DNA from: a virus
Strand: one strand, 5' to 3'
DNA: 64,000 bases
Virus record (IMG/VR): IMGVR_UViG_3300017917_003053
Coordinates: 64,001-128,000 of that record
Shown here: in pieces, positions 2,953 to 61,425 of the stretch
Numbering within the stretch: position 1 is the first letter of the stretch
Layout of the letters: the number at the start of each line of letters is the position of its first letter
Translations under genes and position numbers: made by a program
Notes under the pieces: model-generated
Databases searched by the model: none
The model's input: the letters and a program-made list of their open reading frames with translations, nothing else
What the model was told of the DNA's origin: nothing

Positions 2953-4003
2953 TCAAACCAAGCTTAAAATAGTTTGTGATCAATTATGCGATAATATAGA
3001 AGATTTGTTTAATTATTTTAACATAGACTATAAAAACAATGGAAAGTTTTATAGTATGTGTTGCCCTATACATGGTGGAGATAATCCATCTGCTTTAAAT
3101 ATTTACCATATTGGTGATTCTTACAGAGGAAACTGGAAGTGTAGAACTCATCAATGTGAAAAAGTATTTAAGGGATCAATTATAGGTTTTATTAGAGGAC
3201 TTCTATCTCATAGAGATAAAAATTGGACAGAGAACGGTGACGATACTGTTTCGTTCACTCATACAATGGATTTTATCAAAACATTTTCTCAGATTGATCC
3301 TAATAAAATATCTGTCTCTAGAGTAGAAAAAGACAAGCAAGCTTTTGTTTCTAATACTACAATCTTAAACCAAAAACAAAACAAAGTAGCCAATGCTGTA
3401 AAAAGGGAGCAAATACAAAAAGCCTTAAAAATACCAAGTCCATACTTTTTAAATCGAGGCTTCTCTGCGGACGTGTTGATTAAATATGACGTTGGAGAAT
3501 GTGCGACAGAGGGCAAAGAGATGTATAATCGTGCCGTAGCCCCTATCTATGACGCAAACCATGAGTACATGATAGGTTGTACCGGTAGAACGCTTTTTGA
3601 TAGTATAAAGCCAAAATGGAAACACAGTGAAGGATTTCGTGCAGAAGAATGTTTATACAATTTTTGGTATGCAAAAGAATATATTAAACAGTCCAAGATT
3701 GTGATTCTAGTCGAAAGTCCTGGTAACATATGGAGATTAGAAGAAGCCGGAATCCATAACGGTGTTGCTCTTTTTGGGGCAAACCTTAATGATAAACAAA
3801 AGATGATTTTGGACATATCCGGAGCGATGAAAATTATTACTATAATGGACAATGATCAGGCTGGAGAAAAAGCCAGAGAACAAATTCAAAAAAGATGTGA
3901 AAAAATATACAATATTGATCATATCTTAATAGATAAAAATGACGTTGCAGAGATGAGTATTGACGAAATCAAACAAATTATACTTCCAAGGATTATATTA
4001 TGA
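2909..4003 (+). CDS. dnaG: DNA primase (Zn finger plus TOPRIM)
   Basis: CPIHGGDN...WKCRTHQC zinc finger, ILVESPG and MDNDQAG TOPRIM motifs. Confidence 0.9.
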   Translation: MASQLKNKTASHSIDQTKLKIVCDQLCDNIEDLFNYFNIDYKNNGKFYSMCCPIHGGDNPSALNIYHIGDSYRGNWKCRTHQCEKVFKGSIIGFIRGLLSHRDKNWTENGDDTVSFTHTMDFIKTFSQIDPNKISVSRVEKDKQAFVSNTTILNQKQNKVANAVKREQIQKALKIPSPYFLNRGFSADVLIKYDVGECATEGKEMYNRAVAPIYDANHEYMIGCTGRTLFDSIKPKWKHSEGFRAEECLYNFWYAKEYIKQSKIVILVESPGNIWRLEEAGIHNGVALFGANLNDKQKMILDISGAMKIITIMDNDQAGEKAREQIQKRCEKIYNIDHILIDKNDVAEMSIDEIKQIILPRIIL

Positions 4004-28933: not shown

Positions 28934-28934
28934 C

Positions 28935-31900
28935 CTATCCTCCACAAGAATTTGTACTTGTTAAAATCCATTCGTTTTTCATAAATGTAAAAATACCAGG
29001 TTGATTATTAGTAGATATATCATAATTTAAATAGTTATTAAATTGTATAATAATTTGTTCTGGAGTTTCAGGTTGTCCTGTCACAGCATCAAAACCTTTC
29101 GCATAAGCATTGGATATTGTAGCTGTACCATCGCTATTTATTGTTCCTAAAGCCACAATATTTTGTTTGGATACTGGTTCATAAAATCCAGAAGCCTCAT
29201 CATAGTAACATGTAAGTTTAGCTCCTCTAGGAGCGCCATAGTTTTCGGTACTATCTCTTACGAAAACCATTCTACGTAAATTATTAGCTAATGGTGATTT
29301 CTTATCTGCACTATTTAAAAATGCTCTGGCAGGAAATGGTGGTACAAGATCGTCTTCTAATTGAATATCTACTAATCCATAAGGCTGAGGAGTGGTCCAA
29401 ACTTTTCTTGATGCATCCCATCTTAAATCAATAGGGCCAACCGGCCACATATCTGGTCTTAATCCCCAACCCTTATAAAAATTGTTTTCTTTAACGGGTT
29501 CTGTCCACTGACCTTTTGCAGCGTCCCATGTTTGATTTTTCCCTAAAATTGTACCTTGATAATTTTCATAACCTCCTGTTTGATCTTTTAAATCCTTAAT
29601 ACGTAATGGATATCCATTATCATTTAGAGATTTAGGTTCTCCTGACGCATTTGGTACTGGGAAACCATCAGTATCAAATCCCCATCCGGCCATTACCAAT
29701 GGACCACGAAGCGCTAAAAACCTATGATTATTTTGGAAATACTCTACCTTTTTATTTCCCATAGTTACTGTTGATTGACTTGTTCCAACTCTGCCTGTTG
29801 CAAGGTCAAAGGCTACGGAGTTCCAGTCTCCGTCACATAAAGAATTATTTTGATCTAAATACTCAAATCCATTCTGGTCTGAATTTAGATTACCATTAAT
29901 TGATAATGAGCCTAATGGAGGCACAACGCTTCGTCCAACAATGTCTATATGGTGAGCAGTATAGTCTGAGTCTTGAGCATATTTATTACGCAATTCTCCA
30001 ACTGGCATAATGATAGGATTTAAATTGACATAATCTATTTTCTTACCTTTAGTAGTAGAGAATAATAATTGTTTTAATTTATTAGGATCTTTAATAATAG
30101 TATTATCTGCTTTATCAGATAAAATATATGGAGGTAGTCTTCCATTAGAAGCCAAAGAGGTATCTGATTCTTGTCCCGCCACTATATCTGAGCAATAATC
30201 ACAATATAATGTCTTATCAAACCATGTATATTGTTTTGTTCCTCTACAAATTGGACAACCAGAAATTTTACCATCATTAGTGGTAACATATGGTTTATAA
30301 GGAGTAGTTGAACTAAGCATTGTCGGATAGAAAGATACCGGATGTAGCAATCCATCCAAACTCATAAACGCTTTGGTGCTATACAACTCATCAAATTCTT
30401 GCACAATTTCTCTGGCTTCTTGTATACCAACCGTTGTCATTTGTTTTATAGAATTACCTGACCATTGTGCATTATTATTGTTTGGAGTGGGGAAGAAAGA
30501 CATTCTCCCATTAGGTTCCATTTTTCTACTATAAAATGGTGCAGAATATCCCACCAGTACATTTGCTGGACTATAACTTCTTAAGATTGAGTCCGATGCT
30601 GTGCTCCATGAACCATTTACTCTTGTTCCGGTAGCCAAACCATTTAATATTTCTGATATCTTATTAAATGATTCTCTAAATTCTTTGTTCAATTTTAGAG
30701 TTGCTTCTGAAGCTTGTTTTATTCTGTCTGCATTCTCTTTATTGAAGAGTGTAAACTTTTTAGTGAATGTTCTAAAAGTATATGTTGTACTTGCTCCTCC
30801 ATCACTAATTTGACATTGTATATTACTAACTGTTGGACCTCTAAAAACAACTCCGGCTGCTTTTAATTCGGATCCCAAATTAATAAATGGCACACCTTTG
30901 ATAGTTAAATTGCCGGTCTCTAACTTTTGTTGATAATTGTTATCTTGTCCAACTGTTAATAAAGCTATTTCATCAAGAACTCTCATTCCTCCATATTTCC
31001 ATGGAACAAAATCTGAATTAATTTCTAGTTTTACTCCTCCAATTAATGTTTCAATTTTTTTATTTTTTATAGTATCATTATCGAAAGGGAAAATAACATT
31101 CTTTAATAGATCAGGAGCACTAACCCAAGGGCCATATACTGATGTGTTATCAATAATGGGAATACCAGCAAAAAACGGAATTGCCGCCTTTGGAGCTACA
31201 CTTAAATTATTGAATTGTTTATTAGCTTTATTCTGACTCACAGCATTGTCTGCATTAGCACTGGAAAATTCTTGTGCTGTTGGCCTTCTAAACATAGAAT
31301 TAGCTAAAGCATTAATAGCTACATCTGATCCTGTATCATTGTATTCATTAATAAAATAGTCTGCAATAGCAGCTTGTACTGATAAAGACTCAGGATTAAT
31401 AGGATTAATAAGTACTGGTTGATTAACAGAAATAATAATTTTAGGATATAATTGTCCATTATATAAATATGTTTCAAATTCTTTTTGTACAGATGACTTG
31501 ATATAGACTTTGGAGACTCCTCCTTGGCTTATTGGCACTTGAGTTCCGAATGGATCTGTCAAAGATTTATTAGGTTGTGGTATTACTACACTCTCTCCGT
31601 CTTTTAATTGAAGTGCTGGTTCCCAAAATCCTAAAGATATAGAATCATCTCCGGATAAACTCACTACTCTAGGATTGGCACCATATGTTGCTCCAAACTT
31701 TCTAGATATATCCCATTTCCACATATGAATAGCTTGCATATTAGCATATGTTTCTAGAGACATATCATAAAGTTTTTTATATAACTCTTTACTATAATTA
31801 TATTGGACTGTATTATTAAATCCTAAAATAGGTTCTATAGATCCATCTTCTTTTAAGAGAGGATCCAGATTGGAATTACCAACTCGTAAACTATCATCAA

Positions 31901-34526
31901 TCCAATTACCCGGTTCTTCCCATGCAAATTCTGTTGGTTCAAAAGAGTAATATAACTTTTGAGATCCTGATCGCAAATAGATGGGTTGGCCAGCGTCATT
32001 GGTGCCTATTTGTATTAATAATGGAGAGCCATTTGTTGCTCTAAATGGTTCATCATCTCTCCAAACTTGTGGAGATGGTACATTAACCATATATTTTTTA
32101 CCATAAAATTCATCACCAATCTTTTTAAAAAATGTCTGAAGATTGTTTATGATAGAATAAACCCGTTCATCGTTCAAAATAGATCCGTTAGGAGTAATTG
32201 ATACCGATTCACTACCATTTTGTTTAGTTGCTCCACTAATAGCATTAATGTTAAAATTTCTAGATAATCCAGAAACTAATCCCTTAATCCAAGGGTCTGA
32301 GAAGCTAGTATAAGGTGTTATAGCAGAAGCTGTTCCCGTAAAAATAATCGGACCAAGAACATGCTTCCAAATATCTATAGGAAATCCCGGTTTTAGAATA
32401 GAATTAAAGCAATCATATTTACTACCATCTTCTAACATGCCTGTAAGAAATCCCATGTAAGCATCCAAACCACTCATGGCTGCTCTAATTTCTGTTTCGC
32501 TAATTCTTACATAAAAATCAGAATTACTATACGATACTCCTATAGCAGCTCCTATCTCTGCTAAACTAAAATAAACTAAATATCCTACGCCACCACCGTC
32601 TGGAACGGATCCTAATCTAGCATTCATATTTTTATGATGATGACTTACTGGTCTAATATATCCAGTCAATGGATCATTACCAAAATAAGGACATATAGAA
32701 TCATGAATATATGAAGCGTATTCGTTGCCTCCGGGTAATGCAACATTATCTTGTCCAAGAGGCGTCACAAATGTTGTTTTTATATTGGGAATATAGTTGC
32801 CTACTGGCCTAGAGGTTCCTCCAAAAATACTAGCTTGTGTATTAAAAATTTGGGAATATATCTCTACTCTGCCAAAAGGTGTTGCTGGAGTTTGATATGC
32901 TGCTGAATAATGATCAGGATTTCTAATGTTGGTTGTATCAAAAAATCTGTAATACTGTAATACATTAGGATCATTAGCTGTTTGCGGATAATGGCTTACA
33001 TTCAAAAATGCATTTACATAAGCATTATATCTTAATGTGGACTGTTTTAGAGCATGTTTAAAATTAGCAACTTGATATAGTCTTTGCTGTTTACCGCCAA
33101 CAATAACTGTTCTGATCGGATCATTATTACCTAGTTCTTCTCCCTTAGAGTATGATGTAACCGATAGACCTTGATTGGCTATATCCGTAATAAATCCTTG
33201 AACAATATTATCCGGACTATTGGTGAGTGTATTGATGGAATTAATTTTTAGATATGGATAAATATTTTCTCCATCAATTTGCAATTGCATAGAAATAAAA
33301 ACAGATTGTCCAGTATTTTCTGCAATATTATTGATAAAAGTTAGTATATCCATCTTATTTTCTGATATGCGATAATTATATGGTATAATGCCATTATTAA
33401 TGATATCAGAAAAATCTAATCTGTATGGTATTAGATATAACTGGAGATTTAATTTGTTATAAGTAGCATATAATGACGGTTGTATAAGACCAAACCTGTA
33501 TTTTTCTTTACCTTCAGCCGATGACAATAAGAAAACATCGTTCAGTGTAGACTTAAATTTTGGTGGTTTACTGACAATTCTACCATATGGTGAATATCTT
33601 AATATCTTGTTTTTCTGATTAGTTATAGGAGCATCAGAGTTGATTAATCCATCTAATCCTGTTAAAACATTAATAGCAGTGATACCTTGTTCGCTGCGTC
33701 CAGATCTACCGTATGAATATAAAGAATCTGTGCCAGCAGGTTTGTTTCCATATTCATCGCAATGATCTTCTAAATATCCATATACATTAAAAAGATTGGG
33801 AACATTTTGTTCTGCGATAGCACCAATATAATTACCTTCTGACGCTTTGGGAAAACCAAACTCTGTGCCAAATTGAGACCCAGCAGATTTAGAAAAAACT
33901 GCTCCGTTATAATCTCCCAAAATCATTTGGGATTGAGTTAATAAAAATGATGGTGCTTCTATATTAATTGAATATGTTAAAGTTCCAGATGATCCTCCTG
34001 TTCTCTCCCAACTTTTGACAATACCATGAAATTCAAAATCGTCATATTTAAAATATACTGCACACCCTACTATATCCACACTTCTAGATAAATCTATATT
34101 TCCATATATATCTAAAATTTCTCCATAAAATCCAGGATCAGCATCATACCAATATCTGGATACTAATTTTCCATTATATGGAATATAATATACTTTTCCT
34201 GGAATTAAAGAATTACCATTTTCATCTTTTTCAAAAGTATTGCTTCTTCTTTTATTTGTATAATCGTCATATGCTGTAGGACCGGGTCTTAATACTGTAT
34301 TTCCATTAATATTTGTTAATTCTGGATATATACATTTATCTACTGCTATTTCTACAGATAATTTACTGGCTTCGGTTCCCCATGCTAATGAAGCATTAAA
34401 AGATCGTATGCTGCCTCCTAAGAATAGCGTCTGAGCATAAACTTTAGCACAACAAATATTGTATGTGGATGATGATCCACCATTTTTTCCTTCAACGTCA
34501 AAAGTTGTTTGACATATAGTTACCAT
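28935..34526 (-). CDS. Large tail-tip/baseplate hub-like protein (1863 aa)
   Basis: Lies downstream of the TMP. Beta-rich N-terminus (FLGGSIRSFNASLAWG, FEFHGIVKSW) and a CPIC...CDYC knuckle. Confidence 0.6.
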   Translation of the reverse strand: MVTICQTTFDVEGKNGGSSSTYNICCAKVYAQTLFLGGSIRSFNASLAWGTEASKLSVEIAVDKCIYPELTNINGNTVLRPGPTAYDDYTNKRRSNTFEKDENGNSLIPGKVYYIPYNGKLVSRYWYDADPGFYGEILDIYGNIDLSRSVDIVGCAVYFKYDDFEFHGIVKSWERTGGSSGTLTYSINIEAPSFLLTQSQMILGDYNGAVFSKSAGSQFGTEFGFPKASEGNYIGAIAEQNVPNLFNVYGYLEDHCDEYGNKPAGTDSLYSYGRSGRSEQGITAINVLTGLDGLINSDAPITNQKNKILRYSPYGRIVSKPPKFKSTLNDVFLLSSAEGKEKYRFGLIQPSLYATYNKLNLQLYLIPYRLDFSDIINNGIIPYNYRISENKMDILTFINNIAENTGQSVFISMQLQIDGENIYPYLKINSINTLTNSPDNIVQGFITDIANQGLSVTSYSKGEELGNNDPIRTVIVGGKQQRLYQVANFKHALKQSTLRYNAYVNAFLNVSHYPQTANDPNVLQYYRFFDTTNIRNPDHYSAAYQTPATPFGRVEIYSQIFNTQASIFGGTSRPVGNYIPNIKTTFVTPLGQDNVALPGGNEYASYIHDSICPYFGNDPLTGYIRPVSHHHKNMNARLGSVPDGGGVGYLVYFSLAEIGAAIGVSYSNSDFYVRISETEIRAAMSGLDAYMGFLTGMLEDGSKYDCFNSILKPGFPIDIWKHVLGPIIFTGTASAITPYTSFSDPWIKGLVSGLSRNFNINAISGATKQNGSESVSITPNGSILNDERVYSIINNLQTFFKKIGDEFYGKKYMVNVPSPQVWRDDEPFRATNGSPLLIQIGTNDAGQPIYLRSGSQKLYYSFEPTEFAWEEPGNWIDDSLRVGNSNLDPLLKEDGSIEPILGFNNTVQYNYSKELYKKLYDMSLETYANMQAIHMWKWDISRKFGATYGANPRVVSLSGDDSISLGFWEPALQLKDGESVVIPQPNKSLTDPFGTQVPISQGGVSKVYIKSSVQKEFETYLYNGQLYPKIIISVNQPVLINPINPESLSVQAAIADYFINEYNDTGSDVAINALANSMFRRPTAQEFSSANADNAVSQNKANKQFNNLSVAPKAAIPFFAGIPIIDNTSVYGPWVSAPDLLKNVIFPFDNDTIKNKKIETLIGGVKLEINSDFVPWKYGGMRVLDEIALLTVGQDNNYQQKLETGNLTIKGVPFINLGSELKAAGVVFRGPTVSNIQCQISDGGASTTYTFRTFTKKFTLFNKENADRIKQASEATLKLNKEFRESFNKISEILNGLATGTRVNGSWSTASDSILRSYSPANVLVGYSAPFYSRKMEPNGRMSFFPTPNNNNAQWSGNSIKQMTTVGIQEAREIVQEFDELYSTKAFMSLDGLLHPVSFYPTMLSSTTPYKPYVTTNDGKISGCPICRGTKQYTWFDKTLYCDYCSDIVAGQESDTSLASNGRLPPYILSDKADNTIIKDPNKLKQLLFSTTKGKKIDYVNLNPIIMPVGELRNKYAQDSDYTAHHIDIVGRSVVPPLGSLSINGNLNSDQNGFEYLDQNNSLCDGDWNSVAFDLATGRVGTSQSTVTMGNKKVEYFQNNHRFLALRGPLVMAGWGFDTDGFPVPNASGEPKSLNDNGYPLRIKDLKDQTGGYENYQGTILGKNQTWDAAKGQWTEPVKENNFYKGWGLRPDMWPVGPIDLRWDASRKVWTTPQPYGLVDIQLEDDLVPPFPARAFLNSADKKSPLANNLRRMVFVRDSTENYGAPRGAKLTCYYDEASGFYEPVSKQNIVALGTINSDGTATISNAYAKGFDAVTGQPETPEQIIIQFNNYLNYDISTNNQPGIFTFMKNEWILTSTNSCGG

Positions 34527-40412: not shown

Positions 40413-43400
40413 TTAATACCCTTCGTTTTGTCTGCTCTTTTGATCAAATGCGTCTCTAATTGCTCTTTGAACCAGATTTCCTAATGGTCCATTCAGAACA
40501 TCAGCAAGTACTGAAGCTCCATTAATTGTAACATTCACAGGAATTGGTGATGGAACCTCCAATGTTACAGTTGATGGTATAGCATTTTGCAGTTGTTCGA
40601 TAAATCGGTCTAGTCTGTTACCAAGTGCCTCTATACTGACTGATGGATTGATCTGATTATTAGATACACCGTTTGTGCGAACCTGTGTTGGATCAGGACC
40701 GGTTTCAGAGAGATTGTTTAATTTTTTAACAGCATTCATAAATGCCAGATTAAGACTCTCTGCACCCTTCTTGAGAATATCCGATAAATAGGTCATATTT
40801 GAATCTAAGGCAGATGTTCCCTGTGTACCATCGGCCAAATATGCTACTCCACCCTTAGAATAATAACCGTTATTGATAGACTGTAATAAACCTAAATGTT
40901 TTTGAGAAGCTTGTCTATTAACTACAAATTCTCCTGGGCTTAACATAGCTGGAACTGTGTCTGTTCCTTTTGGTTGATATGGAACTATTGTTCCACCATT
41001 AGCATAAATTGTTCCTCCGCGTTTTCTATATTGAGCAGGAGATAGGGTTGGGTTATTAAATCTTCTTATTTTTTCTTGTTCATATGATCGTTTTGCCTGA
41101 TCTTTTTTATCTTGAGCTAAGAATGATGCTTCTTCTTTTCTCCAGTCTGCAAAAAACTTTAATTCATCTTGTGTAGGATTGGCTCCTTTTCTTCTGGCTT
41201 TTTCTTCTTCAAATCTTTTGCGAGCATCTTCTTTTGCCTTTTGAGCATCTTCTTTTTTCCAAATAGGATCCCAAGTTGATAATACCATCTTACTTTTTTG
41301 ATCGATATCTGCTTGATTTCTTCTTCTTTCCATCTCTTTATCATTTGCAACTCTTCTATCATTTAATGCTTTGTCTCTAGGAGTTTTGAAAGGAATATAA
41401 CTGCCACCTTCGACATAAATTACACCTCCTTTATTAAAATAACTACGATCAGGCAAACTACTTGGATTAAGAGCATCAAATACGGTGCTAGAATCTCTTC
41501 TCAATCCTTCTGGAGGAGGACCATTTTCAAATTTTGTTCCATCCCATTTCACTCCATTTTTAATAGTTCCCCATACTCTATTTATAGCTGTTATTTCTTC
41601 TGTAGCTCGTTTATTTTGTACTCCAAGTACCTCGGCTGGTAATAATCTTGTATTCTTACCATACTGCATTTTACCATCTTGAGTATTAAAGGTTGGAGCC
41701 CCTCTACCCAAGCGTATTCCAAGACTGGTATTATTTTGAACTTGTCTTAAATAATTTTCTCGTTTTGTAGCTTTTCTGTATAGTTCACCAATATTAGCTC
41801 CTTGATTAATTTTTGAAAAAATATCTTTTACCTTTTCTCTATCATTCAACGTAGTGTTAAATGCATCAGGACCAAATAAATTAGGAGCTTCCATCATTTG
41901 ATCTTGTAATTCTGCAACTAGTTTTTCTCCAAAGTTTTTACTTTGTTCTTGACCAACTAAATAATTAATTTTAGGAATAATTCTATCAATTCCTGGTTTG
42001 TACCCATTTACTTCCTCTTTAGCTCTTAAAGATGCTTCTCTAATATTTTGTACTCCAGAAATTTCTCCTACATAATCACCTCTGGGAGTTAAAATAACAT
42101 AGTCGCCTGGTTGTGCTTTTTTAAATGCTCTGTTGAATCTTTGAGAAACAATAGATCTTTGGAAGTTAAGAGGACTTGGATCTACTCCTCCGAGTCTTCC
42201 TCCATCAGCATAATATCCCGAATTGATAGCTTGTAGCACACCTAAATTATCTTTAGTAGATTTTGCATTCACCACAAACTCACCGGGACTAAGCATAGCA
42301 GGAATAGTGTCTGTGCCTTTTGGTTGAAAATTAATATATTTTCCATCAGCAGCATATACTATACCACCAGTGCTCAAAGCTCTAGAACCTTTTATAGTTT
42401 CTGATAATCTATTGAGATTTCTGCCCAATGCAGAAAATTGTTGGTTATTAGTAGTTTGATTTTTATCAATAGATGTATCTAATGATGGAATCTGATTATT
42501 TTTAGTACTTAGAGTAGTACTATTTATAGTTTGAGATAATCCTTTAACGCTGTCTATTTTATTACTTAAAACAGTTTGGTTGATCAGGCCGCTTCTAGCC
42601 ATATCTTGCTGTTTAGCTTTATCTGTTCGTTCTGATACTCCAGAAAGATCTGGTTGACCGCCAGCAGCAAGGTAATTAATTTTTCCTCCTCTGCTATTAT
42701 TAATTGCTGTTAATAAACTAAGATTATCTTTTGTAGATTTAGCATTAACAACAAATTCTCCTGGACTGAGCATGGCTGGTATAGTATCTGTTCCTTTGGG
42801 AACAAAATTGACATACTTACCATTTGCAGCATAGACTAAACCACCAGTAGCAAAACCTCTACCTCCTCCGCCCTGTGGAGCAGCACCTAATCTGATTGCT
42901 ACATCATTCATAGCCTTAACAAAAGCTTCTTGAGTTTTTGCTAAACTATCTAATATGCTTTTACCAACTTTTTCTAATAAATCTTTTTGAATATTTCTAT
43001 CATTTTCATTTTGCAGTCTAACTGCCTCTACCTGAGCATTTTTCAACTCGTCCATGCGAGCTTGTAAAGCCTTTAATACTGGATCATTCTTTGCTCTATC
43101 TTCTGGATTTTGTCTTAATGTTGCTAATAATTTTTGGAAGAAAGGATTTCTCTCTAGACCAGCGCCTTGAGCCCTTGCAAAATTTTCTAACAAGTCTGCT
43201 TTCATTACATCCAATTCTGGGCCGTCCACTCCAGCAATTTGAGTTAATTCGCCAAAGAGTCCTAAAGCTTTTTTGTTTTCATTGGCAAATGCTGTTTGAG
43301 CATCGCTCATGGCTTCTTGAGCTGTCTTTCCTTGTTGAATAGCCTGTACATATGCTTGTTGTGCTACCTGGGATTGTTGAATAGTAGTAATTTGTCCACT

Positions 43401-46400
43401 TAATGTACTATTTAATAAATTAAATGTTTGTGATAGTTCCATTAATTCTTGTGGTGTACTACCAACTAATTTCTCTGCAAATGCGCCAGATGCTTGTTTT
43501 TGTGATTCCAGTTGAGAAACTCGTTTTTGCATTTCTGATGTGACATCGCTAATGGCTCCCTCTAAAGCACCTGGGAGATTTTCTAACTCTTTGGTAGTTT
43601 TATCTATGGTTGAATTAACTTTTGCAAGTTTTAATTGTAGATTAGCAACTTCTTTAGCTGCTGCTGGATTAACAGAAACTTCTGATGATTTTCTATCTAT
43701 TTGAGCTTGTAGTGCTTGTTGTTCTTTTTGAGCACGAGATCTCATATTAGCTATATTTTGTGGAGTAAAATCTCCTTGATTCTGTATTCCTAATCTAGCT
43801 CTGTTTCCAGCAAAACGAGCATTGATCCTTTCGCCTATAGAGACTTTTTGACCTAATGCTTCTTTTGTAGATAAACCACTCTGAGCTTGCATTTCTATAA
43901 GTGCTGATGTTCTATCAGCCCTTCTCTGCTCAATTTCTACTACTCTTTCTGCTACCTTGCCTAATTCATCTAGATGCTTGGCTACATTTTCATTGTTCTT
44001 GATAAGTAATTGTCCAGCTTGCTGTGCAGCTTTGTTTAATGGACCAGCAGCTTTATCTATTAATTCAGAAGGATCTATAGTAGTTCCAGCTTCATTTGCT
44101 TGTTTAACAGCTTCATCTACGGTATTTCTAACTCCAGCAACTAAAGTTTGTGCCATACTACTATTTGGCCCAAATGTAGCTAATATATTATTAGTTAAAC
44201 TGCGAGTTACTGATCCTCCAATATCTTCATTACTACCTCCAGCATTGTATACTGCGTTTGCATCTCTATTGGCTTGTTCTGTTGCTCTCGCTCCAAATTC
44301 AGCAACTTTGCCTACTAGTTGTCCTGATGTACCCATTCTAGCAGCAGAATTTGTTATAGCCGCTTGTCTTTCTCCAGCAGAATAAGCATTTGGATTTTGT
44401 AATACATTATTTGTTCTAGATAAAGTTGAACTAGTTAATGATGCTTTTCCACTAAAAATTTCATCAGCCTTATTGCCAATTTCACCTAATTCAAAACTGG
44501 ATCTATTTAATACTTCTTCCATAGCATTAAAAGATTTTTCTAAGCTAACAACAGCTTGCATCATTACTACAGAAAGTTTCTTAGAAGCTTCTGCTGCGGC
44601 TTTTGCTTGTGCGGCAGCGGATGCCTCAGCAAGGGATCTTTTAGCAATGCTTTCTGACATTACCGCTAATTCTTTATTGGTTTCTGCTTGTAAAGCGTCT
44701 GCTTCTGCTCCTCTTCCACTATCTCTTAATTTTTTAATTTCGTCTGCTCTTTGAATCTGGAATGTAGCATATCTTTCATCCGCTTCAGCAATATTAGATG
44801 TTAGCATCTTGAATTGATCAGGACTCATAGTTTTACTAACCTGATCAAAGGTTTTCCCAGTTCTCATCATTTCTTGAACTAAAAATTGTTGAGCTTGATC
44901 AGCTCCAGACTTTTGTGTATCTGCTCTTCGTTTTCCTGCGTCCATAGCAGTCTCGTCTGCATAGCCAAACATTTTACCAAATGTACTTGCTCTTTGTCTC
45001 TTTATTCCTGCTCCCGCTGAGGCTTCAGCAGATGATGCATCGCTGAAGGACTTAAGAAATGAGTTTCTTCCTGTAACGTTTCCAGGATTAGTCATATATG
45101 CTTGCAGAGCTTTACCGCTTTTATCTGTTGCTGTTTGAGATGCCGCTATCTTTTGACTCTGAGCGTATTCTTCATTAGCTTTTTCTGCTTCTCCAATACC
45201 CATAACAAAACCAGCTAATGCTCCTGTTGCTGCTCCGATACCTGTGCCAAGAGGACCAAACATACTGCCAACAGTGGCTCCTATAGAAGCCATATTAGCA
45301 ACACTACCTCCTATGGCCGCTGTTGATCGTCCTGCCTCTGTCTTTTCTCCTCCCATAGCCTTAGATATAGCATCAACGCCTAATCCTCCAACCATTGTGA
45401 GAGCCATACCAGCCATACCAAATCCACCACCTCCACCAGCACCGCCAGCCCCTCTGCCTCCAGAAGCAAATCTTCCTAAGCCAATAGCATTAAGTGCTCC
45501 TCCTCCTATACTGCTAATCAATCCTCCAGCACCTCTGCCAGCAGCCATAATGCTAGATTTACCAACTTGTAATAGGCCTGTTCCAGCATTTTTTGCAGCC
45601 TGTGTTAGCATCTGCAACGGATTAGTTGCACTTTTAAGACTTGCTGCAAATTGAAGTCCGGCATTAGACATATTAGAAACGCCAGATGTCATGCCCATAA
45701 CATTTGACCTACGATCAACAACATCTTGTCCTCTTTGATATTGTCCAACATTACTGGCTATTTGATCTATTCTGGCCTGACTAGCGGCAAAGCCTGTTGG
45801 CCCAACAGGACTTCTTACTGGTCTACTTTCTGTTGTTCCTGTGGCTAAGTTTGTTGGGCTTGGTGGTCCAACTGGAGGCGATGATCCAGCATTAGCAACT
45901 CTGACTTTTTTGCCTTGTCTACTTCCACCTCCTCCGGATTGTGCTAATGTAGCAGCTTCTGTAGCAGCAGCATTGATATCCGAGGCTCCTTTTTCTAATT
46001 TAGAAGTAAAGATTCTCATTGCTTTTAACATTTGGTCTGTTGGTAATCCACTTACCATAGACTCTAAAACATTGAAAGCATCAACATTATCCATGATGGC
46101 TTTACTGAGTTTTGCTGTGTCTTTTGGAGATAATCCACCCAAAGCTGGTGTTAGTTGAGCGGGAAAACCTCCAGCAGCAAACTTTTGTATGCCTCCAACA
46201 CTACCTCCCTTATTAAATCCTTGAATTTTATCTGCTCTATTTAATTGATGAAGTCTACTTGCTCCTATTCTGCTAGCAGCTTTTTTATTGATAACAAATT
46301 CACCAGGAGTTAATAGTGCAGGAACAGTGTCCTGTCCTGATATTCCTCCTCCTGTTGCTTTTCTTTTTCTTGTTTTGGTTTTAACTGCTGGAACAAGATT

Positions 46401-49400
46401 AGGATTTTCAGCAAATAAAAATCTATCTACTTGATTCAAAAATTTAGGTATTCCCTTGCCTCTTTCACCCTTTTTACCGGTATCTCCTACTGTTCTTGTG
46501 GCATCTGTTGGTATCATTGGAGGTATACCAAATAAAGATGCTAATTTAGTACTTAATCCTTGGCTAAAGTCAATAGCTTTAAATTCTTTAGATGAGTATG
46601 GATTACCAGCTACTCCTATAGCACCCTCTAATGCTGCTCCGATTACTCCTTCTACGCCAGCATCTTTCATAATTTTTTCGATGACTGGGCCGGTCTGAGG
46701 AACAGCACCAATCTGTTGTGCCATGCTTGATCCTACTCTAGAAATAGAATCTTGGAATCCTTTAATGATATCGTCTTCATATTGAGAACTAAAATTAGAA
46801 GGTAATACTCCACCCCATACTGTTACTTTATTACCTTTTGGAGTAATTTTTGGAGCACCAGCAACCGGAGTGCCGTATAATCCTACTAGTCCTACTGGGA
46901 TACCTGCTTGTTGTTCAGCGTCTAGGGGTACTTGAGAAGAATTTTTCTCTAATAATTTTTTAATTTCAAGTTTTTTAGCTTCTTTTTCTTCTTTAGACAT
47001 GCTCCTAATTTTACTACTACTATATTGTTGTTTAAAAGCAGAATTAATTTTTCCTGCTGTCACACCACCACCATTAATAAATCTGGACACTCTGGATGCT
47101 CTCGGACCTTTTGATCTCATAGCATCATATGCCTCTTGTTTACTTCCTCCTCCTGTAAATATCATATTGCCAATTGGAATGCCGAATAATTCATTAATAT
47201 ATTCTGCAAGTCCTGGGGTTCTTTTGGATTTACTAATAATACTTAAATTAGAAGGATTAACTTGTCCATCTTGAATAGATTTTTGAAGCATTCTACCAAA
47301 CTGGGTAAGTCTGGCATTTTTTGCATCTTCTAGTCTATTGGTAGGATCTCTGAAGTATTTAGATAATACAGCATCTTTTTGTCCAGAAGTTTTAGCTTTA
47401 CCATATGCGGCATCTCCAACAGTACGTTTTAGGGTTCTATCAAAATCTAATGCACCATAGCCGCTAGCAAGAATTTTGTCTAAAGCTATTTTGTTTGGTA
47501 ACATAGCTCCAGCAGCATTAGATGTTATATCATCTACTAATGGAGCATTTGCAAAACCACCTTTAGCAAATTGTTCAACATCCATCCATAAATTTTTATT
47601 AACACCTAATTTAACGAATTTAGTTTTATCAACTCTAAATTTTGATCCTGGTCTTAGGATAAATTCATCTTCACTCTCTGGTGGATTTTGATATAATGTT
47701 TGTCCAGTAATATTGTCTTTTTTAATACCTCCTCTAACTGCTGTTCCTTTTAATTGCTCAACAACATCTACTCCTTTAGCTCCTTTTTTAGTCTTAATAT
47801 TCATCATAGCGGCCCAATTATCTTCAGATCTTTCTGCATTATCTAAAAATATTTTGGCTTTAGCAAAATCTTTACTTGTTGATACAAAACCTGGGAGACG
47901 AAAACTTTTACCAATAATTTTCATCGTTTCTTGAGAATAATATTTCTCTTGATCAAAAAAATTGGTTCCTTTTGGTATGGCTGGATTTTTATTTAATCCT
48001 GTCTGCATAGCCATCATATCAAATGCTGATCTAGAAATAGAACTATATAGTTGTTTTGGAGCAGATGTTCCTAGTGATCTTAGATCTTTTGTTTCTTTAG
48101 CTAGTTGACTTCTTTCAGTTTTAGACAGATCTTTCTTTCTAGAAAATCTAGTATTGTCGAAATCTCCACGATAATAATTTTGTAATGTATCTTTGGCTTG
48201 TCCTCCATTAGCATATCTGTTCATTCTATGAAGATTGCCTACACCGATAGCTTTTACAGCATTTTTTCTTATAACAAATTCCCCCGGAGTCAACATCGCT
48301 GGAAATGTATCAGAGTTACCTTCTCCTGGAACAACACCTCCAGTAGCAAAACCTCTAACAAATCCACCATTGTTTTGACGGCGTAAACCTCCTGCAAAGC
48401 CAGCACCAAAGCGAGTTAAAGCAGAGACTCCTCTAAAAGCTGCAATGGCAGTTAATGCTGGTAATACTGTCTTAGCGCTATCTGCTAATCTGATAAGAGC
48501 ACTGGCTAAATCTAAACTTAATCTAACGAATGTTTGAAAAGTAGCACTTTCTCCTAATGATCTGATTAGTGCTGTAAATTCTTCTCTAACTTTTGTGATT
48601 TGATTTGCTAAACTTAATTGTGCTGTTGCAGCATCCTTGGCTAATGATCCTTGCCCTTGTTGTGCCACCTTCAATGCCGCCTGTGCTGTGGCGAATTGTT
48701 GGATAAGAGGAATAACTTTACCAATCTGACGGAAACCACCAAGTTCTTCAACAATTTGACTGAATCTTAAATCTCGTGGATCTAATTTACTTAAACCATC
48801 ACTTAGTCTACGTACAGCTTCATACGGTCCAACGAATTTTCCTTCTAAATCAGTTAATGTTACTCCATATTGTTTTAGAGCATCTATAGTATCTTTTCTT
48901 TGAATACGAGTAAAAATAGTTCTTAAACCGGTAGCGATAGTTTCTGCACTTTCACGGGTTGTAGCACGAACACTTGTAAATACTGCCAAGAATTCATTTA
49001 ATGCATCTTTGCCTTCACTAACCCCTCTACTAGCTGTGGCAAACACACCACCAGTACGTTGAATAGCTGTAATTAAGTCACTAGCTTCTACAGCAAATTT
49101 TGCAGCAACAGCGTTAACACTACCTAAAGCATCTTCGAGTTGTCCTGCACTAATACCAAACTGTCTCATCAAAGCAATAGAACCTTCTACAGTATCTGAT
49201 AAACTATCGAATGATGGAGCTAGAGCACTTAATGCCAAAGCTTTAAGGGCTTTCTCTGTATCTTTGGCTGTTAAACCCGCCTGAGCTAATGTACTAGATA
49301 CCGTAATTAAATCTTTAGAGGCTATGCCAAGGCCAGTAGAAAGACTAGTGATTTCTTTTACTAATGGACTTAACTGTGATAAACTAGAATCAGTAACTTG

Positions 49401-49925
49401 TGCCACTCTAACTAACTCTTTATTGAATCCGATAAATTCGCTTGTGGCGGATGAAAGAGCATTGGTGAACTTGTATATTACCCCAGTAACCGTAGCAAAC
49501 GCTGCGAATCTTCTTACTGCTAATGCTGACTGTCTACCGAACTCTTCAAAACCTGTGGCTGTCTGATTCAAGGTTCTATTAGTTTGAGTTAAAGTATTAT
49601 TGACATTTCCTGCACCAGCGTTAATTCTATTTAAATTTCTGGGTATATTGCCAATGTTGTTATTTGCTGCTGCGGCTGCTCTTCCAAAAGCACTTAATGA
49701 TGCTGCGGCATTTCTGGCTGCATTTTGTGTAGCATTTAAAGAAGTATTTAGTCTGTTGATAGATTGTTGTAAATTGTTAACATTTCTAGTAGTATTATTA
49801 TTGATATTAACATTTACATCTGCTGTAATACCAGATAATTGTCTTCTAATATTCGCAATTACTGGTCTGATATTTGCAGGACCTCTTAAATTTAATTCTG
49901 CGGTTAGATTAAATGATCTAGACAT
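40413..49925 (-). CDS. Tail tape measure protein (3170 aa) with inserted enzymatic domains
   Basis: TP901-type core (ETIATGLRTIFTRI, GGFRQIGKV), Gly/Ala hydrophobic segments, coiled coils, and position after the tail chaperones. Confidence 0.9.
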   Translation of the reverse strand: MSRSFNLTAELNLRGPANIRPVIANIRRQLSGITADVNVNINNNTTRNVNNLQQSINRLNTSLNATQNAARNAAASLSAFGRAAAAANNNIGNIPRNLNRINAGAGNVNNTLTQTNRTLNQTATGFEEFGRQSALAVRRFAAFATVTGVIYKFTNALSSATSEFIGFNKELVRVAQVTDSSLSQLSPLVKEITSLSTGLGIASKDLITVSSTLAQAGLTAKDTEKALKALALSALAPSFDSLSDTVEGSIALMRQFGISAGQLEDALGSVNAVAAKFAVEASDLITAIQRTGGVFATASRGVSEGKDALNEFLAVFTSVRATTRESAETIATGLRTIFTRIQRKDTIDALKQYGVTLTDLEGKFVGPYEAVRRLSDGLSKLDPRDLRFSQIVEELGGFRQIGKVIPLIQQFATAQAALKVAQQGQGSLAKDAATAQLSLANQITKVREEFTALIRSLGESATFQTFVRLSLDLASALIRLADSAKTVLPALTAIAAFRGVSALTRFGAGFAGGLRRQNNGGFVRGFATGGVVPGEGNSDTFPAMLTPGEFVIRKNAVKAIGVGNLHRMNRYANGGQAKDTLQNYYRGDFDNTRFSRKKDLSKTERSQLAKETKDLRSLGTSAPKQLYSSISRSAFDMMAMQTGLNKNPAIPKGTNFFDQEKYYSQETMKIIGKSFRLPGFVSTSKDFAKAKIFLDNAERSEDNWAAMMNIKTKKGAKGVDVVEQLKGTAVRGGIKKDNITGQTLYQNPPESEDEFILRPGSKFRVDKTKFVKLGVNKNLWMDVEQFAKGGFANAPLVDDITSNAAGAMLPNKIALDKILASGYGALDFDRTLKRTVGDAAYGKAKTSGQKDAVLSKYFRDPTNRLEDAKNARLTQFGRMLQKSIQDGQVNPSNLSIISKSKRTPGLAEYINELFGIPIGNMIFTGGGSKQEAYDAMRSKGPRASRVSRFINGGGVTAGKINSAFKQQYSSSKIRSMSKEEKEAKKLEIKKLLEKNSSQVPLDAEQQAGIPVGLVGLYGTPVAGAPKITPKGNKVTVWGGVLPSNFSSQYEDDIIKGFQDSISRVGSSMAQQIGAVPQTGPVIEKIMKDAGVEGVIGAALEGAIGVAGNPYSSKEFKAIDFSQGLSTKLASLFGIPPMIPTDATRTVGDTGKKGERGKGIPKFLNQVDRFLFAENPNLVPAVKTKTRKRKATGGGISGQDTVPALLTPGEFVINKKAASRIGASRLHQLNRADKIQGFNKGGSVGGIQKFAAGGFPAQLTPALGGLSPKDTAKLSKAIMDNVDAFNVLESMVSGLPTDQMLKAMRIFTSKLEKGASDINAAATEAATLAQSGGGGSRQGKKVRVANAGSSPPVGPPSPTNLATGTTESRPVRSPVGPTGFAASQARIDQIASNVGQYQRGQDVVDRRSNVMGMTSGVSNMSNAGLQFAASLKSATNPLQMLTQAAKNAGTGLLQVGKSSIMAAGRGAGGLISSIGGGALNAIGLGRFASGGRGAGGAGGGGGFGMAGMALTMVGGLGVDAISKAMGGEKTEAGRSTAAIGGSVANMASIGATVGSMFGPLGTGIGAATGALAGFVMGIGEAEKANEEYAQSQKIAASQTATDKSGKALQAYMTNPGNVTGRNSFLKSFSDASSAEASAGAGIKRQRASTFGKMFGYADETAMDAGKRRADTQKSGADQAQQFLVQEMMRTGKTFDQVSKTMSPDQFKMLTSNIAEADERYATFQIQRADEIKKLRDSGRGAEADALQAETNKELAVMSESIAKRSLAEASAAAQAKAAAEASKKLSVVMMQAVVSLEKSFNAMEEVLNRSSFELGEIGNKADEIFSGKASLTSSTLSRTNNVLQNPNAYSAGERQAAITNSAARMGTSGQLVGKVAEFGARATEQANRDANAVYNAGGSNEDIGGSVTRSLTNNILATFGPNSSMAQTLVAGVRNTVDEAVKQANEAGTTIDPSELIDKAAGPLNKAAQQAGQLLIKNNENVAKHLDELGKVAERVVEIEQRRADRTSALIEMQAQSGLSTKEALGQKVSIGERINARFAGNRARLGIQNQGDFTPQNIANMRSRAQKEQQALQAQIDRKSSEVSVNPAAAKEVANLQLKLAKVNSTIDKTTKELENLPGALEGAISDVTSEMQKRVSQLESQKQASGAFAEKLVGSTPQELMELSQTFNLLNSTLSGQITTIQQSQVAQQAYVQAIQQGKTAQEAMSDAQTAFANENKKALGLFGELTQIAGVDGPELDVMKADLLENFARAQGAGLERNPFFQKLLATLRQNPEDRAKNDPVLKALQARMDELKNAQVEAVRLQNENDRNIQKDLLEKVGKSILDSLAKTQEAFVKAMNDVAIRLGAAPQGGGGRGFATGGLVYAANGKYVNFVPKGTDTIPAMLSPGEFVVNAKSTKDNLSLLTAINNSRGGKINYLAAGGQPDLSGVSERTDKAKQQDMARSGLINQTVLSNKIDSVKGLSQTINSTTLSTKNNQIPSLDTSIDKNQTTNNQQFSALGRNLNRLSETIKGSRALSTGGIVYAADGKYINFQPKGTDTIPAMLSPGEFVVNAKSTKDNLGVLQAINSGYYADGGRLGGVDPSPLNFQRSIVSQRFNRAFKKAQPGDYVILTPRGDYVGEISGVQNIREASLRAKEEVNGYKPGIDRIIPKINYLVGQEQSKNFGEKLVAELQDQMMEAPNLFGPDAFNTTLNDREKVKDIFSKINQGANIGELYRKATKRENYLRQVQNNTSLGIRLGRGAPTFNTQDGKMQYGKNTRLLPAEVLGVQNKRATEEITAINRVWGTIKNGVKWDGTKFENGPPPEGLRRDSSTVFDALNPSSLPDRSYFNKGGVIYVEGGSYIPFKTPRDKALNDRRVANDKEMERRRNQADIDQKSKMVLSTWDPIWKKEDAQKAKEDARKRFEEEKARRKGANPTQDELKFFADWRKEEASFLAQDKKDQAKRSYEQEKIRRFNNPTLSPAQYRKRGGTIYANGGTIVPYQPKGTDTVPAMLSPGEFVVNRQASQKHLGLLQSINNGYYSKGGVAYLADGTQGTSALDSNMTYLSDILKKGAESLNLAFMNAVKKLNNLSETGPDPTQVRTNGVSNNQINPSVSIEALGNRLDRFIEQLQNAIPSTVTLEVPSPIPVNVTINGASVLADVLNGPLGNLVQRAIRDAFDQKSRQNEGY
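40827..41021 (-). repeat. TMP PGEFV module, copy 5
   Basis: RGGTIYANGG...PKGTDTVPAMLSPGEFVVN...YYSKGGVAYLADG. Confidence 0.9.
42198..42377 (-). repeat. TMP PGEFV module, copy 4
   Basis: LSTGGIVYAADG...PKGTDTIPAMLSPGEFVVNAKSTKDNL...YYADGG. Confidence 0.9.
42657..42854 (-). repeat. TMP PGEFV module, copy 3
   Basis: FATGGLVYAANG...PKGTDTIPAMLSPGEFVVNAKSTKDNL...YLAAGG. Confidence 0.9.
46167..46361 (-). repeat. TMP PGEFV module, copy 2
   Basis: KATGGGISGQDTVPALLTPGEFVINKKAASRIG...FNKGG...FAAGG. Confidence 0.9.
48201..48350 (-). repeat. TMP PGEFV module, copy 1
   Basis: FATGGVVPGEGNSDTFPAMLTPGEFVIRKNAVKAIGVGNLHRMNRYANGG. Confidence 0.9.
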
Positions 49926-50013: not shown

Positions 50014-50886
50014 TCAAACTGTAGCATCACCACCGTCTGTTGATTCAACAGGAGTGGGAGCCTTGGTTTCTTGTTTGATTTCGTCTGGTGGCAATATTGG
50101 ATTGCCGTCCTCGTCCAAGAATGGTTTTGTTTCAACAACATATTCTCCTGTTTCGTTGACCCTATTGCCATCTCTGTCTACAAAATTACCATTTTCATCT
50201 ATTAATCTATTATTTTCGTCAATTAATCTTCCATCAGCGTCTATTAATCTACCCTTTTTGTCAATTCTTCTAAGCTTATCGTCAACAAACTTATACTTAG
50301 TTAAAAATTTATTTTCTGGTAAGTTCTTTTCAAAGTTATTATCTAAACCATAGATCATGTTAGCCAAATTTTGAGCACCTAAAATGGCCACAGGATCATC
50401 AGACTTATTAAGATACTCTTCCAAATTGCTAAAATATTTTTCTCCACTATCTTTATACACCACGCAGGACGATACTAAATAGTTAAATCTTGCATTATCC
50501 GCTTGACCTTCAGCACTATGATTATCTAAACTAGTGCGAACACTAATTAAGTCTTTAATTTTATCTCGAATTTCTTGCATTTCAAAAGCTAGTTGTTTGG
50601 CCTCATTTATTCCGAAACCTCCCTTAGCTAACCTTCTTTCTCCATCAAGTAATTGTTTTTGCATGTTAGAATATTCTGCTTGTTTTTCATCATTCCATAA
50701 TCCCTGATCTCGAAGCAGATCGTCTAATTTAGCTCTTACCACACTCTTGCTCTTTATGGCGTCTGTAAAGGCTTGATTATATACCTTCTGAGCTTCTCTT
50801 TGATCATTTAATGAAGGGGATTTAACAAGGAATTCCACATCTTTATCGTTAACTTTTGCAGTAAAGGTCTTAGTTTGCATTGTCAT
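50014..50886 (-). CDS. Putative tail assembly chaperone with short IDxxG repeats
   Basis: Immediately upstream of the TMP; contains RRIDKKG RLIDADG RLIDENN RLIDENG NFVDRDG NRVNETG. Confidence 0.55.
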   Translation of the reverse strand: MTMQTKTFTAKVNDKDVEFLVKSPSLNDQREAQKVYNQAFTDAIKSKSVVRAKLDDLLRDQGLWNDEKQAEYSNMQKQLLDGERRLAKGGFGINEAKQLAFEMQEIRDKIKDLISVRTSLDNHSAEGQADNARFNYLVSSCVVYKDSGEKYFSNLEEYLNKSDDPVAILGAQNLANMIYGLDNNFEKNLPENKFLTKYKFVDDKLRRIDKKGRLIDADGRLIDENNRLIDENGNFVDRDGNRVNETGEYVVETKPFLDEDGNPILPPDEIKQETKAPTPVESTDGGDATV

Positions 50887-51190
50887 TCTCCTTATTGGTT
50901 GGTCTCATTTTGAATTTATAATTATATCTAACTTCTGGTCCATTTCTTAATTGCTTAGAAATATCACTTGCCAAGCCTCTGATTTGCTGATTACCATGGT
51001 TCAGAATATTATTTCTTACATCCTGCCACATATTATCAAAATGTATTTCGGAATCTGATAGAGGCTCATCCATATTTTTATGATGCGCCCACAGATAGCC
51101 AAAAACATTCTCAAATCTGGCCAAAGCTCCTATCATGGTTGTTTCTAGTCTTTTGATTGCTAATTGTAGAATTATCTGTTCTTCATTCAT
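50870..51190 (-). CDS. Hypothetical protein
   Basis: 106-aa ORF coupled to its neighbours in the tail operon. Confidence 0.6.
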   Translation of the reverse strand: MNEEQIILQLAIKRLETTMIGALARFENVFGYLWAHHKNMDEPLSDSEIHFDNMWQDVRNNILNHGNQQIRGLASDISKQLRNGPEVRYNYKFKMRPTNKENDNAN

Positions 51191-60717: not shown

Positions 60718-60733
60718 TAGTATGATATACACC
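60718..60733 (-). promoter_or_regulatory. 16-bp intergenic motif, copy B (candidate late promoter)
   Basis: GGTGTATATCATACTA, identical to 56894-56909. Confidence 0.55.
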
Positions 60734-61425
60734 TATAGACTAAAACGGCCTTTGATAGCATTATAATTTTGACTAATTTCTATAACCGATAAAACTTTAT
60801 TATATAAAGTTATATTTGATATATCGCCAACTAAATGTTGAGTATAAGCATCATCTCTAGTACCTACTCTTAAAGTTCCAGAAGCTGTTCCAGTAGCCGA
60901 ACCTCGTGTTGTTGAGGCAACTTGTATTCCATCAAAATATCCAATTAAATTTGTTCCGTCAAATGTTAATCCAATATTATGCCATAATCCATCTGTAGCC
61001 TTTGTGGTACTATATGTGGTATATACGTCGTTATAGCTCGTCCCTGCCGCGAACCATAAAGCGCTAGCAGTGTAAGCGCTTAATTCAAAGTCAGAATTAC
61101 TCATTCTTAATATAGTTTGCCAAGAATTATCTTGTAAACTAGTTCTATACCAAACAAAAATACTTAGTGCAGAAAGCGCTGGGATATTTGCAATATCAAA
61201 CCTACTATAATTAGTACCAACAATTCCTCCATTAAAAGTAAAATATCCATTGCTATTATATAAAGGATATGTTGGGGACTGAGATCCAGCTTTGGCACCA
61301 CTATAAGAACTTGAAATTAAATTATTCCATGTGCTACCGCTACCAGGATAGCTTTTAGTATTTTTAGCATCTAGGTACATGATTAAAGAATCTGTAATAA
61401 TTCTAGGGCCATTGCTATAACTCAT
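60733..61425 (-). CDS. LamG/concanavalin A-like lectin domain protein
   Basis: YLDAKNTKSYPGSGSTW, WHNIGLTFDG, YNKVLS...QNYNA. Confidence 0.8.
   Translation of the reverse strand: MSYSNGPRIITDSLIMYLDAKNTKSYPGSGSTWNNLISSSYSGAKAGSQSPTYPLYNSNGYFTFNGGIVGTNYSRFDIANIPALSALSIFVWYRTSLQDNSWQTILRMSNSDFELSAYTASALWFAAGTSYNDVYTTYSTTKATDGLWHNIGLTFDGTNLIGYFDGIQVASTTRGSATGTASGTLRVGTRDDAYTQHLVGDISNITLYNKVLSVIEISQNYNAIKGRFSL

Follow-up and report, generated by a model that had tools for sequence, protein, structure and literature searches.

Tape measure proteins (TMPs) are usually seen as rulers, sometimes with one wall-cutting domain, and the locus described here raises the question of what else such a ruler may hold. 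It lies in a window of 64,000 nucleotides, the whole stretch of DNA analysed, which corresponds to positions 64,001 to 128,000 of the IMG/VR record IMGVR_UViG_3300017917_003053, a complete virus record of 153,002 bp. On the minus strand at 40413-49925, the window contains one uninterrupted open reading frame (ORF) of 3170 codons, encoding a protein of 3170 amino acids (aa) punctuated by five copies of a glycine-rich module. The whole analysis was computational, and structure models were poor except for two cassettes. The results indicate that the TMP of this uncultured 153-kb long-tailed phage is probably a conserved ruler with two cargo bays, in which modules form flexible joints and the cargo is delivered early, making it a platform for combinatorial enzyme-like cargo.

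The profile matches of the ORF identify its product as a TP901-type TMP, in agreement with an earlier note made on this DNA. PF10145 matched at aa 191-395 (E 1.2e-22, 81.2 bits against a curated cut-off of 33.2), TIGR01760 at aa 151-461 (E 1e-25, 90.6 bits against a cut-off of 28.8), and phrog_28 matched with an E value of 7e-28. These domains lie in the N-terminal core, or backbone part 1 (48378..49925 (-), aa 1-516), which was found in all 119 relatives considered below. A megablast search of cultured phages with the TMP gene gave no match, and the multi-module clade to which the protein belongs has no cultured member within the phage collection searched.

PGEF occurs five times in the protein, once in each of five modules recognised by alignment and profile: module 1 (FATGG..PGEFV..YANGG; 48201..48350 (-), aa 526-575), module 2 (46167..46361 (-), aa 1189-1253), module 3 (42657..42854 (-), aa 2358-2423), module 4 (42198..42377 (-), aa 2517-2576) and module 5 (40827..41021 (-), aa 2969-3033). 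All five positions had been reported in the earlier note and are confirmed here. The module has the form GG..PGEFV..GG and a length of 60-75 aa, and the five aligned copies share 16 invariant columns, namely GG, DT.PA.L.PGEFV, L, N and A.G. Short marks were likewise located where they had been placed before, with FAKGG at aa 786-790 (47556..47570 (-)), FINGG at aa 949-953 (47067..47081 (-)) and YFNKGG/YVEGG at aa 2829-2841. A scan of the whole 153-kb genome with a profile of the five copies recovered these five and, in addition, only a half copy at 41385-41444, the YFNKGG site. This half module, YFNKGGVIYVEGG (41403..41441 (-), aa 2829-2841), matches positions 9-28 of the module profile with an E value of 0.005, and at least one short [FY]xxGG mark is, as judged from its sequence, a truncated module. 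The extended consensus of the marks is GG-x-(V/I)-Q-(K/R)-(F/Y)-A-x-GG. In 120 relatives, [FYW]xxGG was counted 10.3 times per protein, compared with 1.7 expected from composition.

In a word-indexed search of a protein space of 5.8 billion sequences, 1202 large homologues were found among the 8000 candidates scored. The set of relatives used here comprises 120 listed of these 1202 homologues; they measure 2226-5539 aa, derive mostly from contigs of 10-235 kb, and carry 2-8 modules each. Identity in the N-terminal core is 60-90% in most of 119 relatives. Coverage of the query by these relatives is markedly uneven along its length: aa 1-550 are covered in 116-119 of the 119, aa 600-1150 in 19-37, aa 1200-1250 in 102, aa 1260-1500 (the glycine-rich start of backbone part 2) in 16-41, aa 1500-2400 in 65-102, aa 2600-2950 in 9-21, and aa 2950-3170 in 50-94. 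The falls in coverage coincide with module edges. The alignments point to two bays, at aa 576-1188 and aa 2424-2968, which hold cassettes that relatives add, drop and reorder. The modules had been proposed to alternate with unrelated inserts, which holds for the two variable bays but not for the longest stretch between modules (aa 1254-2357), which is mostly conserved backbone. This backbone part 2 (42855..46166 (-)) consists of a glycine-rich hydrophobic stretch (about aa 1440-1600) and, after it, a long segment of helical character.

Every protein was then split at its modules and at isolated [FYW]xxGG marks, and the resulting pieces were clustered. A single layout emerged, in which the core is followed by a module, a first series of cargo segments separated by short marks, a second module, a central backbone of about 1000 aa, a further module, cargo, a last module and, at the C-terminus, a tail of about 126 aa. 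A module comes next after the core in 118 of 120 proteins. Segment family F1, which is the central backbone, occurs in 96 of the 120 relatives (median length 1004 aa), and in 93 of those 96 the next element is a module. The C-terminal tail forms family F2 (115-149 aa, 45 relatives) and has a module ahead of it in all 45 relatives with this tail type; in the window it corresponds, together with the stop codon, to backbone part 3 (40413..40826 (-), aa 3034-3170). By analogy with lambda gpH, T5 pb2 and Douge gp16, whose tip-binding C-terminal fragments sit at the same place, this tail may have a role at the tail tip. Judging from the sequences, full modules stand at the borders between backbone and bays, while short [FY]xxGG marks stand between cassettes.

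The bays are exchanged in whole units. An end-to-end match was defined as one covering at least 85% of both segments, and 182 of 312 segments (58%) with at least one isolated mark as an edge matched another protein in this way, compared with 68-70 of about 300 (23%) when the marks were shifted by 25-70 aa as a control. Matches to the first cassette (A) run from query aa 561-575 to aa 790-826, with most ends at 790-792, and in 10 relatives this cassette is relocated, starting at aa 850-1734. The second (B) extends over aa 783-955, from FAKGG to FINGG, and is present in varying order in 34 of 119 relatives. Indeed, the order is A-B-C in the window, B-A in relative P0003, and C-B-A in P0086 and P0057, and the third cassette (C) precedes B in P0007, P0086 and P0057. 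The expectation that the segments would vary among relatives as entire cassettes delimited by the modules and by [FY]xxGG marks is therefore borne out, and the architecture, the shuffling of cassettes and the positions of the joints are all directly observed. A search of viral contigs for loci with the first bay gave no confirmed relative.

At the DNA level, the module copies share 66-75% nucleotide identity over 163 nt. The module repeats, for which a role as a recombination mark had been proposed in the earlier note, were considered as a recombination substrate and rejected as such, since at this identity they are unlikely to drive exchange within the gene.

Regarding the contents of the bays, cassette A (47571..48200 (-), aa 576-785) begins directly after module 1 and is closed by FAKGG, where its matches end and those of cassette B begin. 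Motifs and weak profile matches support the view that it is ADP-ribosyltransferase-like (ART). PF03496, of the VIP2/C3 type, is matched by four of five cassette A homologues, with a best E value of 1.5e-5, and appears as a precomputed hit in relatives P0084, P0085 and P0242; among the PHROG families, the cassette matches an ART family (E 0.0013). The five copies of the cassette, with 58-75% identity to that of the window, keep R632, S682-T-S684 and E750-S-E752-D-E754 invariant, in R-S-E order. From this conservation a catalytic arginine can be tentatively assigned, and the arginine of YYRGD is taken not to be catalytic, as it is not conserved. A profile of the cassette had no match among PDB sequences.

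Cassette B (47082..47555 (-), aa 791-948) is HAD-like, of the phosphatase type, with moderate support. It carries the DxDxT signature as DFDRT, within a HAD motif I that reads GALDFDRTL, and D-x-D-R-T is kept in every aligned homologue; LSIISKS is a possible motif II, whereas an acidic motif IV is not clearly present. Modelled with AlphaFold2, cassette B reached a predicted local distance difference test (pLDDT) score of 80-90, and its top fold matches were class C acid phosphatases (7cle_A, Z 5.6, root mean square deviation 4.4, 127 residues aligned; others at Z 5.4 and 5.0). Receiver domains tie with the phosphatases at Z of about 5, and the T4 Pnkp phosphatase follows at Z 4.5. No Pfam HAD family matched at E values up to 5.

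Beyond FINGG, which separates it from B, cassette C (46362..47066 (-), aa 954-1188) is mostly helical and occurs in 32 relatives; it has no Pfam or PHROG match and only weak fold matches to helical bundles. In the second bay, a short linker cassette (42378..42656 (-), aa 2424-2516; family F19, closest relatives only) lies between modules 3 and 4. It is followed by cassette D (41442..42197 (-), aa 2577-2828), a helical domain in 9 of 119 relatives, modelled with pLDDT 70-90 over about aa 2588-2808, whose best fold match (Z 7.2) was again among helical bundles, and which gave no lead in Pfam, PHROGs or the Atlas. Between the half module and module 5 lies cassette E (41022..41402 (-), aa 2842-2968), a charged segment with long predicted helices, present in 13 relatives; like C and D, it gave no lead from protein families, folds or the Atlas. 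Inserts resembling ART, HAD and nuclease domains had been suggested; the first two stand, through their motifs and the weak profile or fold matches, whereas nothing pointed to a nuclease in cassettes C, D and E by Pfam, PHROGs, fold search or the Atlas, which would still allow for one. Fold comparison of the segments, which had also been advised, gave HAD-like matches for B (Z about 5) and only helical bundles for C and D, and the model of A was poor.

At the sensitivity used, no stand-alone homologues of cassettes A or B were found outside TMPs, and only five matches to shorter proteins were obtained. Four of the five have the TMP core domain and all lie on contigs of at most 7.4 kb, for which reasons they are probably TMP fragments. 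Short multi-module proteins were also considered as naturally split cargo genes; several of them start inside a module or without an initiator Met, they look like truncated gene calls, and they were rejected. As further observations on the clade, precomputed EF-hand Pfam hits are attached to P0054, P0071, P0080 and P0020 at the level of the protein only, without placement in the bays, and 'glutaredoxin 2' is the source annotation of one clade member. Both hint at a cargo repertoire wider than that sampled.

The module is widespread outside this phage. A profile scan, as had been suggested for phage TMPs, retrieved 16,212 cluster representatives at E values up to 1e-3, 802 of them at E values up to 1e-30, with up to 11 modules and up to 7872 aa per protein. 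The N-terminal core is present in 91 of 118 top profile hits that were absent from the first homologue search. In a tblastn search of cultured phages, every annotated hit fell in a TMP gene, with 5 of the 40 hits listed lying in unannotated records. The carriers include Burkholderia, Ralstonia, Streptomyces, Nodularia and Brevundimonas phages among others, and they usually have one copy near the C-terminus (Satis, Kikimora) or two (Nodularia phage vB_NpeS-2AV2, with a TMP of 3404 aa). Douge gp16 contains two copies (E 1.9e-15), mycobacteriophage TM4 gp17 one at aa 703-774 (35 bits), and lambda gpH one at 733-782, reading FATGG..GEFV..IGVGNL..YATGG and matched by the module profile at 25-27 bits (E 3.8e-5 in the PDB sequence set). 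This lambda segment had been described correctly in the earlier note. By sequence comparison, the modules of the window are homologous to those of lambda, TM4 and Douge, and the module appears as an ancient, TMP-specific element, which is single in ordinary TMPs (lambda gpH, Satis, Kikimora) and multiplied in this clade.

No Pfam or NCBIfam model matched the isolated module, and a literature search found no paper describing or naming it. Pfam Tape_meas_lam_C was considered as its name and rejected, as it covers gpH 627-701, upstream of the module; NCBIfam TIGR01541 spans gpH 472-813 and includes the module implicitly. The 11-aa W/F repeats of Belcaid et al. 2011 are a different thing. Searched against the PDB, the module profile matched only regions of lambda gpH and Douge gp16, both unresolved by cryo-electron microscopy, and hence no structure of the module exists; in lambda gpH, the region containing it (aa 690-817) has never been structurally resolved.

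Three phages provide the experimental background against which the module can be read. Lambda gpH is cut within a glycine-rich region, at a place estimated only roughly as residues 690-730; the resulting gpHC contains the module, and its C-terminal end binds gpI. In the window, the Gly/Ala-rich stretch of the central backbone (about aa 1440-1600) resembles the glycine-rich region ahead of the lambda module; it coincides with a rise in G+C at 44000-46000, to 41.8% compared with about 33% elsewhere. TM4 gp17 carries a proven peptidoglycan hydrolase, Mt3 (centred on W853), which begins about 25 aa past the module. Deletion of Mt3 shortens the tail, which implies that embedded cargo lies within the ruler. 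In T5, pb2C is a TMP-borne enzyme which is kept in the tail and then expelled, and a cut in pb2 has been mapped by mass spectrometry after R1127. The residues past this cut (aa 1127-1136, AEGGMMYPG) resemble the opening of the module, GG-h-h-Y-x-x-G with h a hydrophobic residue, a pattern that occurs once in pb2. T5 pb2 gave no module profile match, its pairwise alignments to the modules were not significant (z 0.3-1.7), and the likeness may be due to chance; T5 pb2 was accordingly rejected as a second mapped example.

The explanation favoured here, with moderate confidence, is that of a ruler with stowed cargo. The three backbone parts (aa 1-516, 1254-2357 and 3034-3170) would form the ruler common to a very large clade, and the modules and marks would act as flexible glycine-rich joints. 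With such joints, cargo able to fold could be accommodated in an extended form inside the tail lumen, kept in register with the helical ruler, as is implied by the TM4 deletion. By analogy with T5 pb2C, the cargo would leave the tail early, with the TMP and ahead of the DNA; it would then refold in the envelope or the cytoplasm and act before phage gene expression. Cleavage at the joints would be possible but not required. AlphaFold2 gave the modules a pLDDT of 25-40, which, beside values of 70-90 in cassettes B and D, fits joints that do not fold alone. We infer stowage, delivery and enzymatic activity of the cargo, and injection of this TMP is supposed by analogy with TMP biology in general.

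A different account was given in the earlier note, according to which the modules and [FY]xxGG marks are proteolytic sites and the TMP is a polyprotein, cut at maturation or after ejection to release several free effectors. It draws on lambda gpH, which is cut in the glycine-rich region just ahead of its single module, and where cleavage behind FATGG would yield 80.1 and 12.2 kDa, compared with the approximately 78 and 14 kDa reported; those mass estimates, however, place the cut 10-40 residues upstream of FATGG and not at it. The T5 cut after R1127 lies two residues ahead of the GG of the module-like sequence, but in a protein with no significant similarity to the modules, and no module-located cut site has been mapped in any phage. 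GG-X sites serve viral polyprotein proteases such as adenain and pS273R of African swine fever virus, and the joints are predicted to be disordered, which would make them accessible. Against this, PF14464 (Prok-JAB), PF02902 (Peptidase_C48) and PF03412 (Peptidase_C39) had no match in the complete 153-kb genome at E values up to 1, a negative that leaves room for divergent or host enzymes. Moreover, cleavage at every joint ahead of ejection would deprive the TMP of the continuity needed by a ruler and channel former. On balance, the polyprotein account is regarded as unlikely. Its stronger form, in which the module is a self-contained processing and release device that directs the conversion of lambda gpH into gpH* and gpHC, and which has been multiplied here so that the TMP is cut into free effectors entering ahead of the DNA, is quite unlikely. 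If processing did occur, the tail lumen would be a multi-shot effector magazine.

At the other extreme, the bays could be purely structural, serving as length or spacer elements with enzyme-like cassettes as relics, while the modules dock a chaperone, the tube wall or the tip and keep the TMP chains in register. The shorter tail obtained on removal of the embedded TM4 domain agrees with such a role, as do the range of TMP lengths in the clade (2226-7872 aa) and the helical nature of three of the five cassettes here, which show no enzymatic signature. The last module always stands just ahead of a C-terminal tail expected to bind the tip, and the lambda module belongs to gpHC, the end of which binds gpI. 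What argues against a purely structural role is that the catalytic-type residues R, STS and ExE in the ART cassette, like the DxDxT motif in the HAD-like one, do not vary between copies sharing only 40-75% identity, which indicates selection for activity, and that the cassettes shuffle combinatorially as whole units, a behaviour typical of conflict-driven cargo and not of a ruler. The structural account is consequently held to be distinctly improbable.

Several points tell against the favoured explanation of a ruler with delivered cargo as well. The evidence for this phage is computational only. Cassette A of the window scores 21.9 bits against PF03496 (E 1.3e-4), below the curated cut-off of 23.4, and its AlphaFold2 model is poor, with pLDDT mostly below 50; the HAD call draws on one motif and on fold matches with Z of about 5; and no function can be assigned to three of the five cassettes, which could be structural. 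The low pLDDT of the modules may reflect only shallow alignments (9-17 rows) or a fold that depends on a partner. Furthermore, the lumen of a long tail is narrow and would have to accommodate about 1000 aa of cargo in each of 3 to 6 copies. Finally, an ART must reach the cytoplasm, as it needs NAD+, and such an arrival is not established for any TMP segment.

This TMP can be compared with several known systems. Lambda gpH has the same module after a glycine-rich hydrophobic stretch and ahead of tip-binding C-terminal residues, with a cut nearby, but it has one module and no cargo bay, while here five modules and a half module have enzyme-like cassettes between them. Like TM4 gp17 with Mt3 and T5 pb2 with its C-terminal metallopeptidase, the window's TMP would hold enzymes delivered at infection, and as in TM4, its cargo directly follows a module of the same type. 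The difference is that TM4 and T5 have one wall-degrading domain each, whereas the cassettes here are several, vary among relatives, and include non-lytic types (ART-like and HAD-like). In polymorphic toxins, a short conserved motif (VENN in CdiA, PxxxxDPxGL in Rhs) separates a constant delivery part from a swappable cargo, which consists of one terminal toxin with an adjacent immunity gene. A conserved motif marks the cargo border here as well, but the cassettes are several and lie in arrays inside the protein, and no immunity gene was noticed, although no search aimed at one was made.

Polyvalent proteins (Iyer et al. 2017, PMC5512222) are similar in having several effector-type domains, ARTs included, delivered with the DNA and shuffled combinatorially. 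They are described as packaged in the head or transferred by conjugation, often together with a zincin-like processing peptidase, and their survey does not mention TMPs (PMC5512222); in the present case, by contrast, it is a TMP that carries the domains, and a special joint motif lies between them. No peptidase family turned up in the Pfam scan of this TMP, in which no search aimed at zincin-like peptidases was made. Sle1-type effectors of contractile injection systems (PMC13277306) likewise combine a TMP-like helical N-terminus, lodged in a tail-like tube, with an exchangeable C-terminal functional domain, but the functional domain is one, the injection system is bacterial, and there is no ruler role in a virion.

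TMPs with a single embedded lytic domain, polyvalent proteins delivered from the head and modular TMP-like effectors of injection systems were therefore already known. What is new is a large clade in which TMPs contain several cassettes in a row, partly enzyme-like and subject to shuffling, joined in a fixed pattern, together with the recognition that lambda has the very same junction element next to the region of its unexplained cleavage. The pattern provides a rule for spotting virion-delivered effectors in uncultured phages, which is to look between modules. In addition, the module is a conserved and so far unnamed unit that makes the old question of lambda gpH cleavage directly approachable in a model phage.

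The gene order around the TMP looks as expected for a tail gene block, with overlapping ORFs of 106 and 290 aa upstream and large ORFs downstream, and it is the same in relatives, although almost no Pfam or PHROG family matched the adjoining genes. Immediately upstream of the TMP, the 106-aa ORF (50870-51190 (-)) and the 290-aa ORF (50014-50886 (-)) share an overlap of 17 nt. Both lack Pfam and PHROG matches, and at this place ORFs about 100 aa and 285-296 aa long are retained in relatives. By position, the pair is a candidate for the G/GT-type tail assembly chaperones, which are produced with a programmed frameshift.

Downstream of the tail genes, at 22178-34526 (-), two ORFs of 1863 and 2255 aa matched nothing in Pfam and are presumably very divergent fibre or tip proteins. 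Among the structural genes, a 230-aa protein (60733-61425 (-)) contains a concanavalin-like lectin domain (Laminin_G_3, E 1.8e-14), making it a possible decoration or receptor-binding protein.

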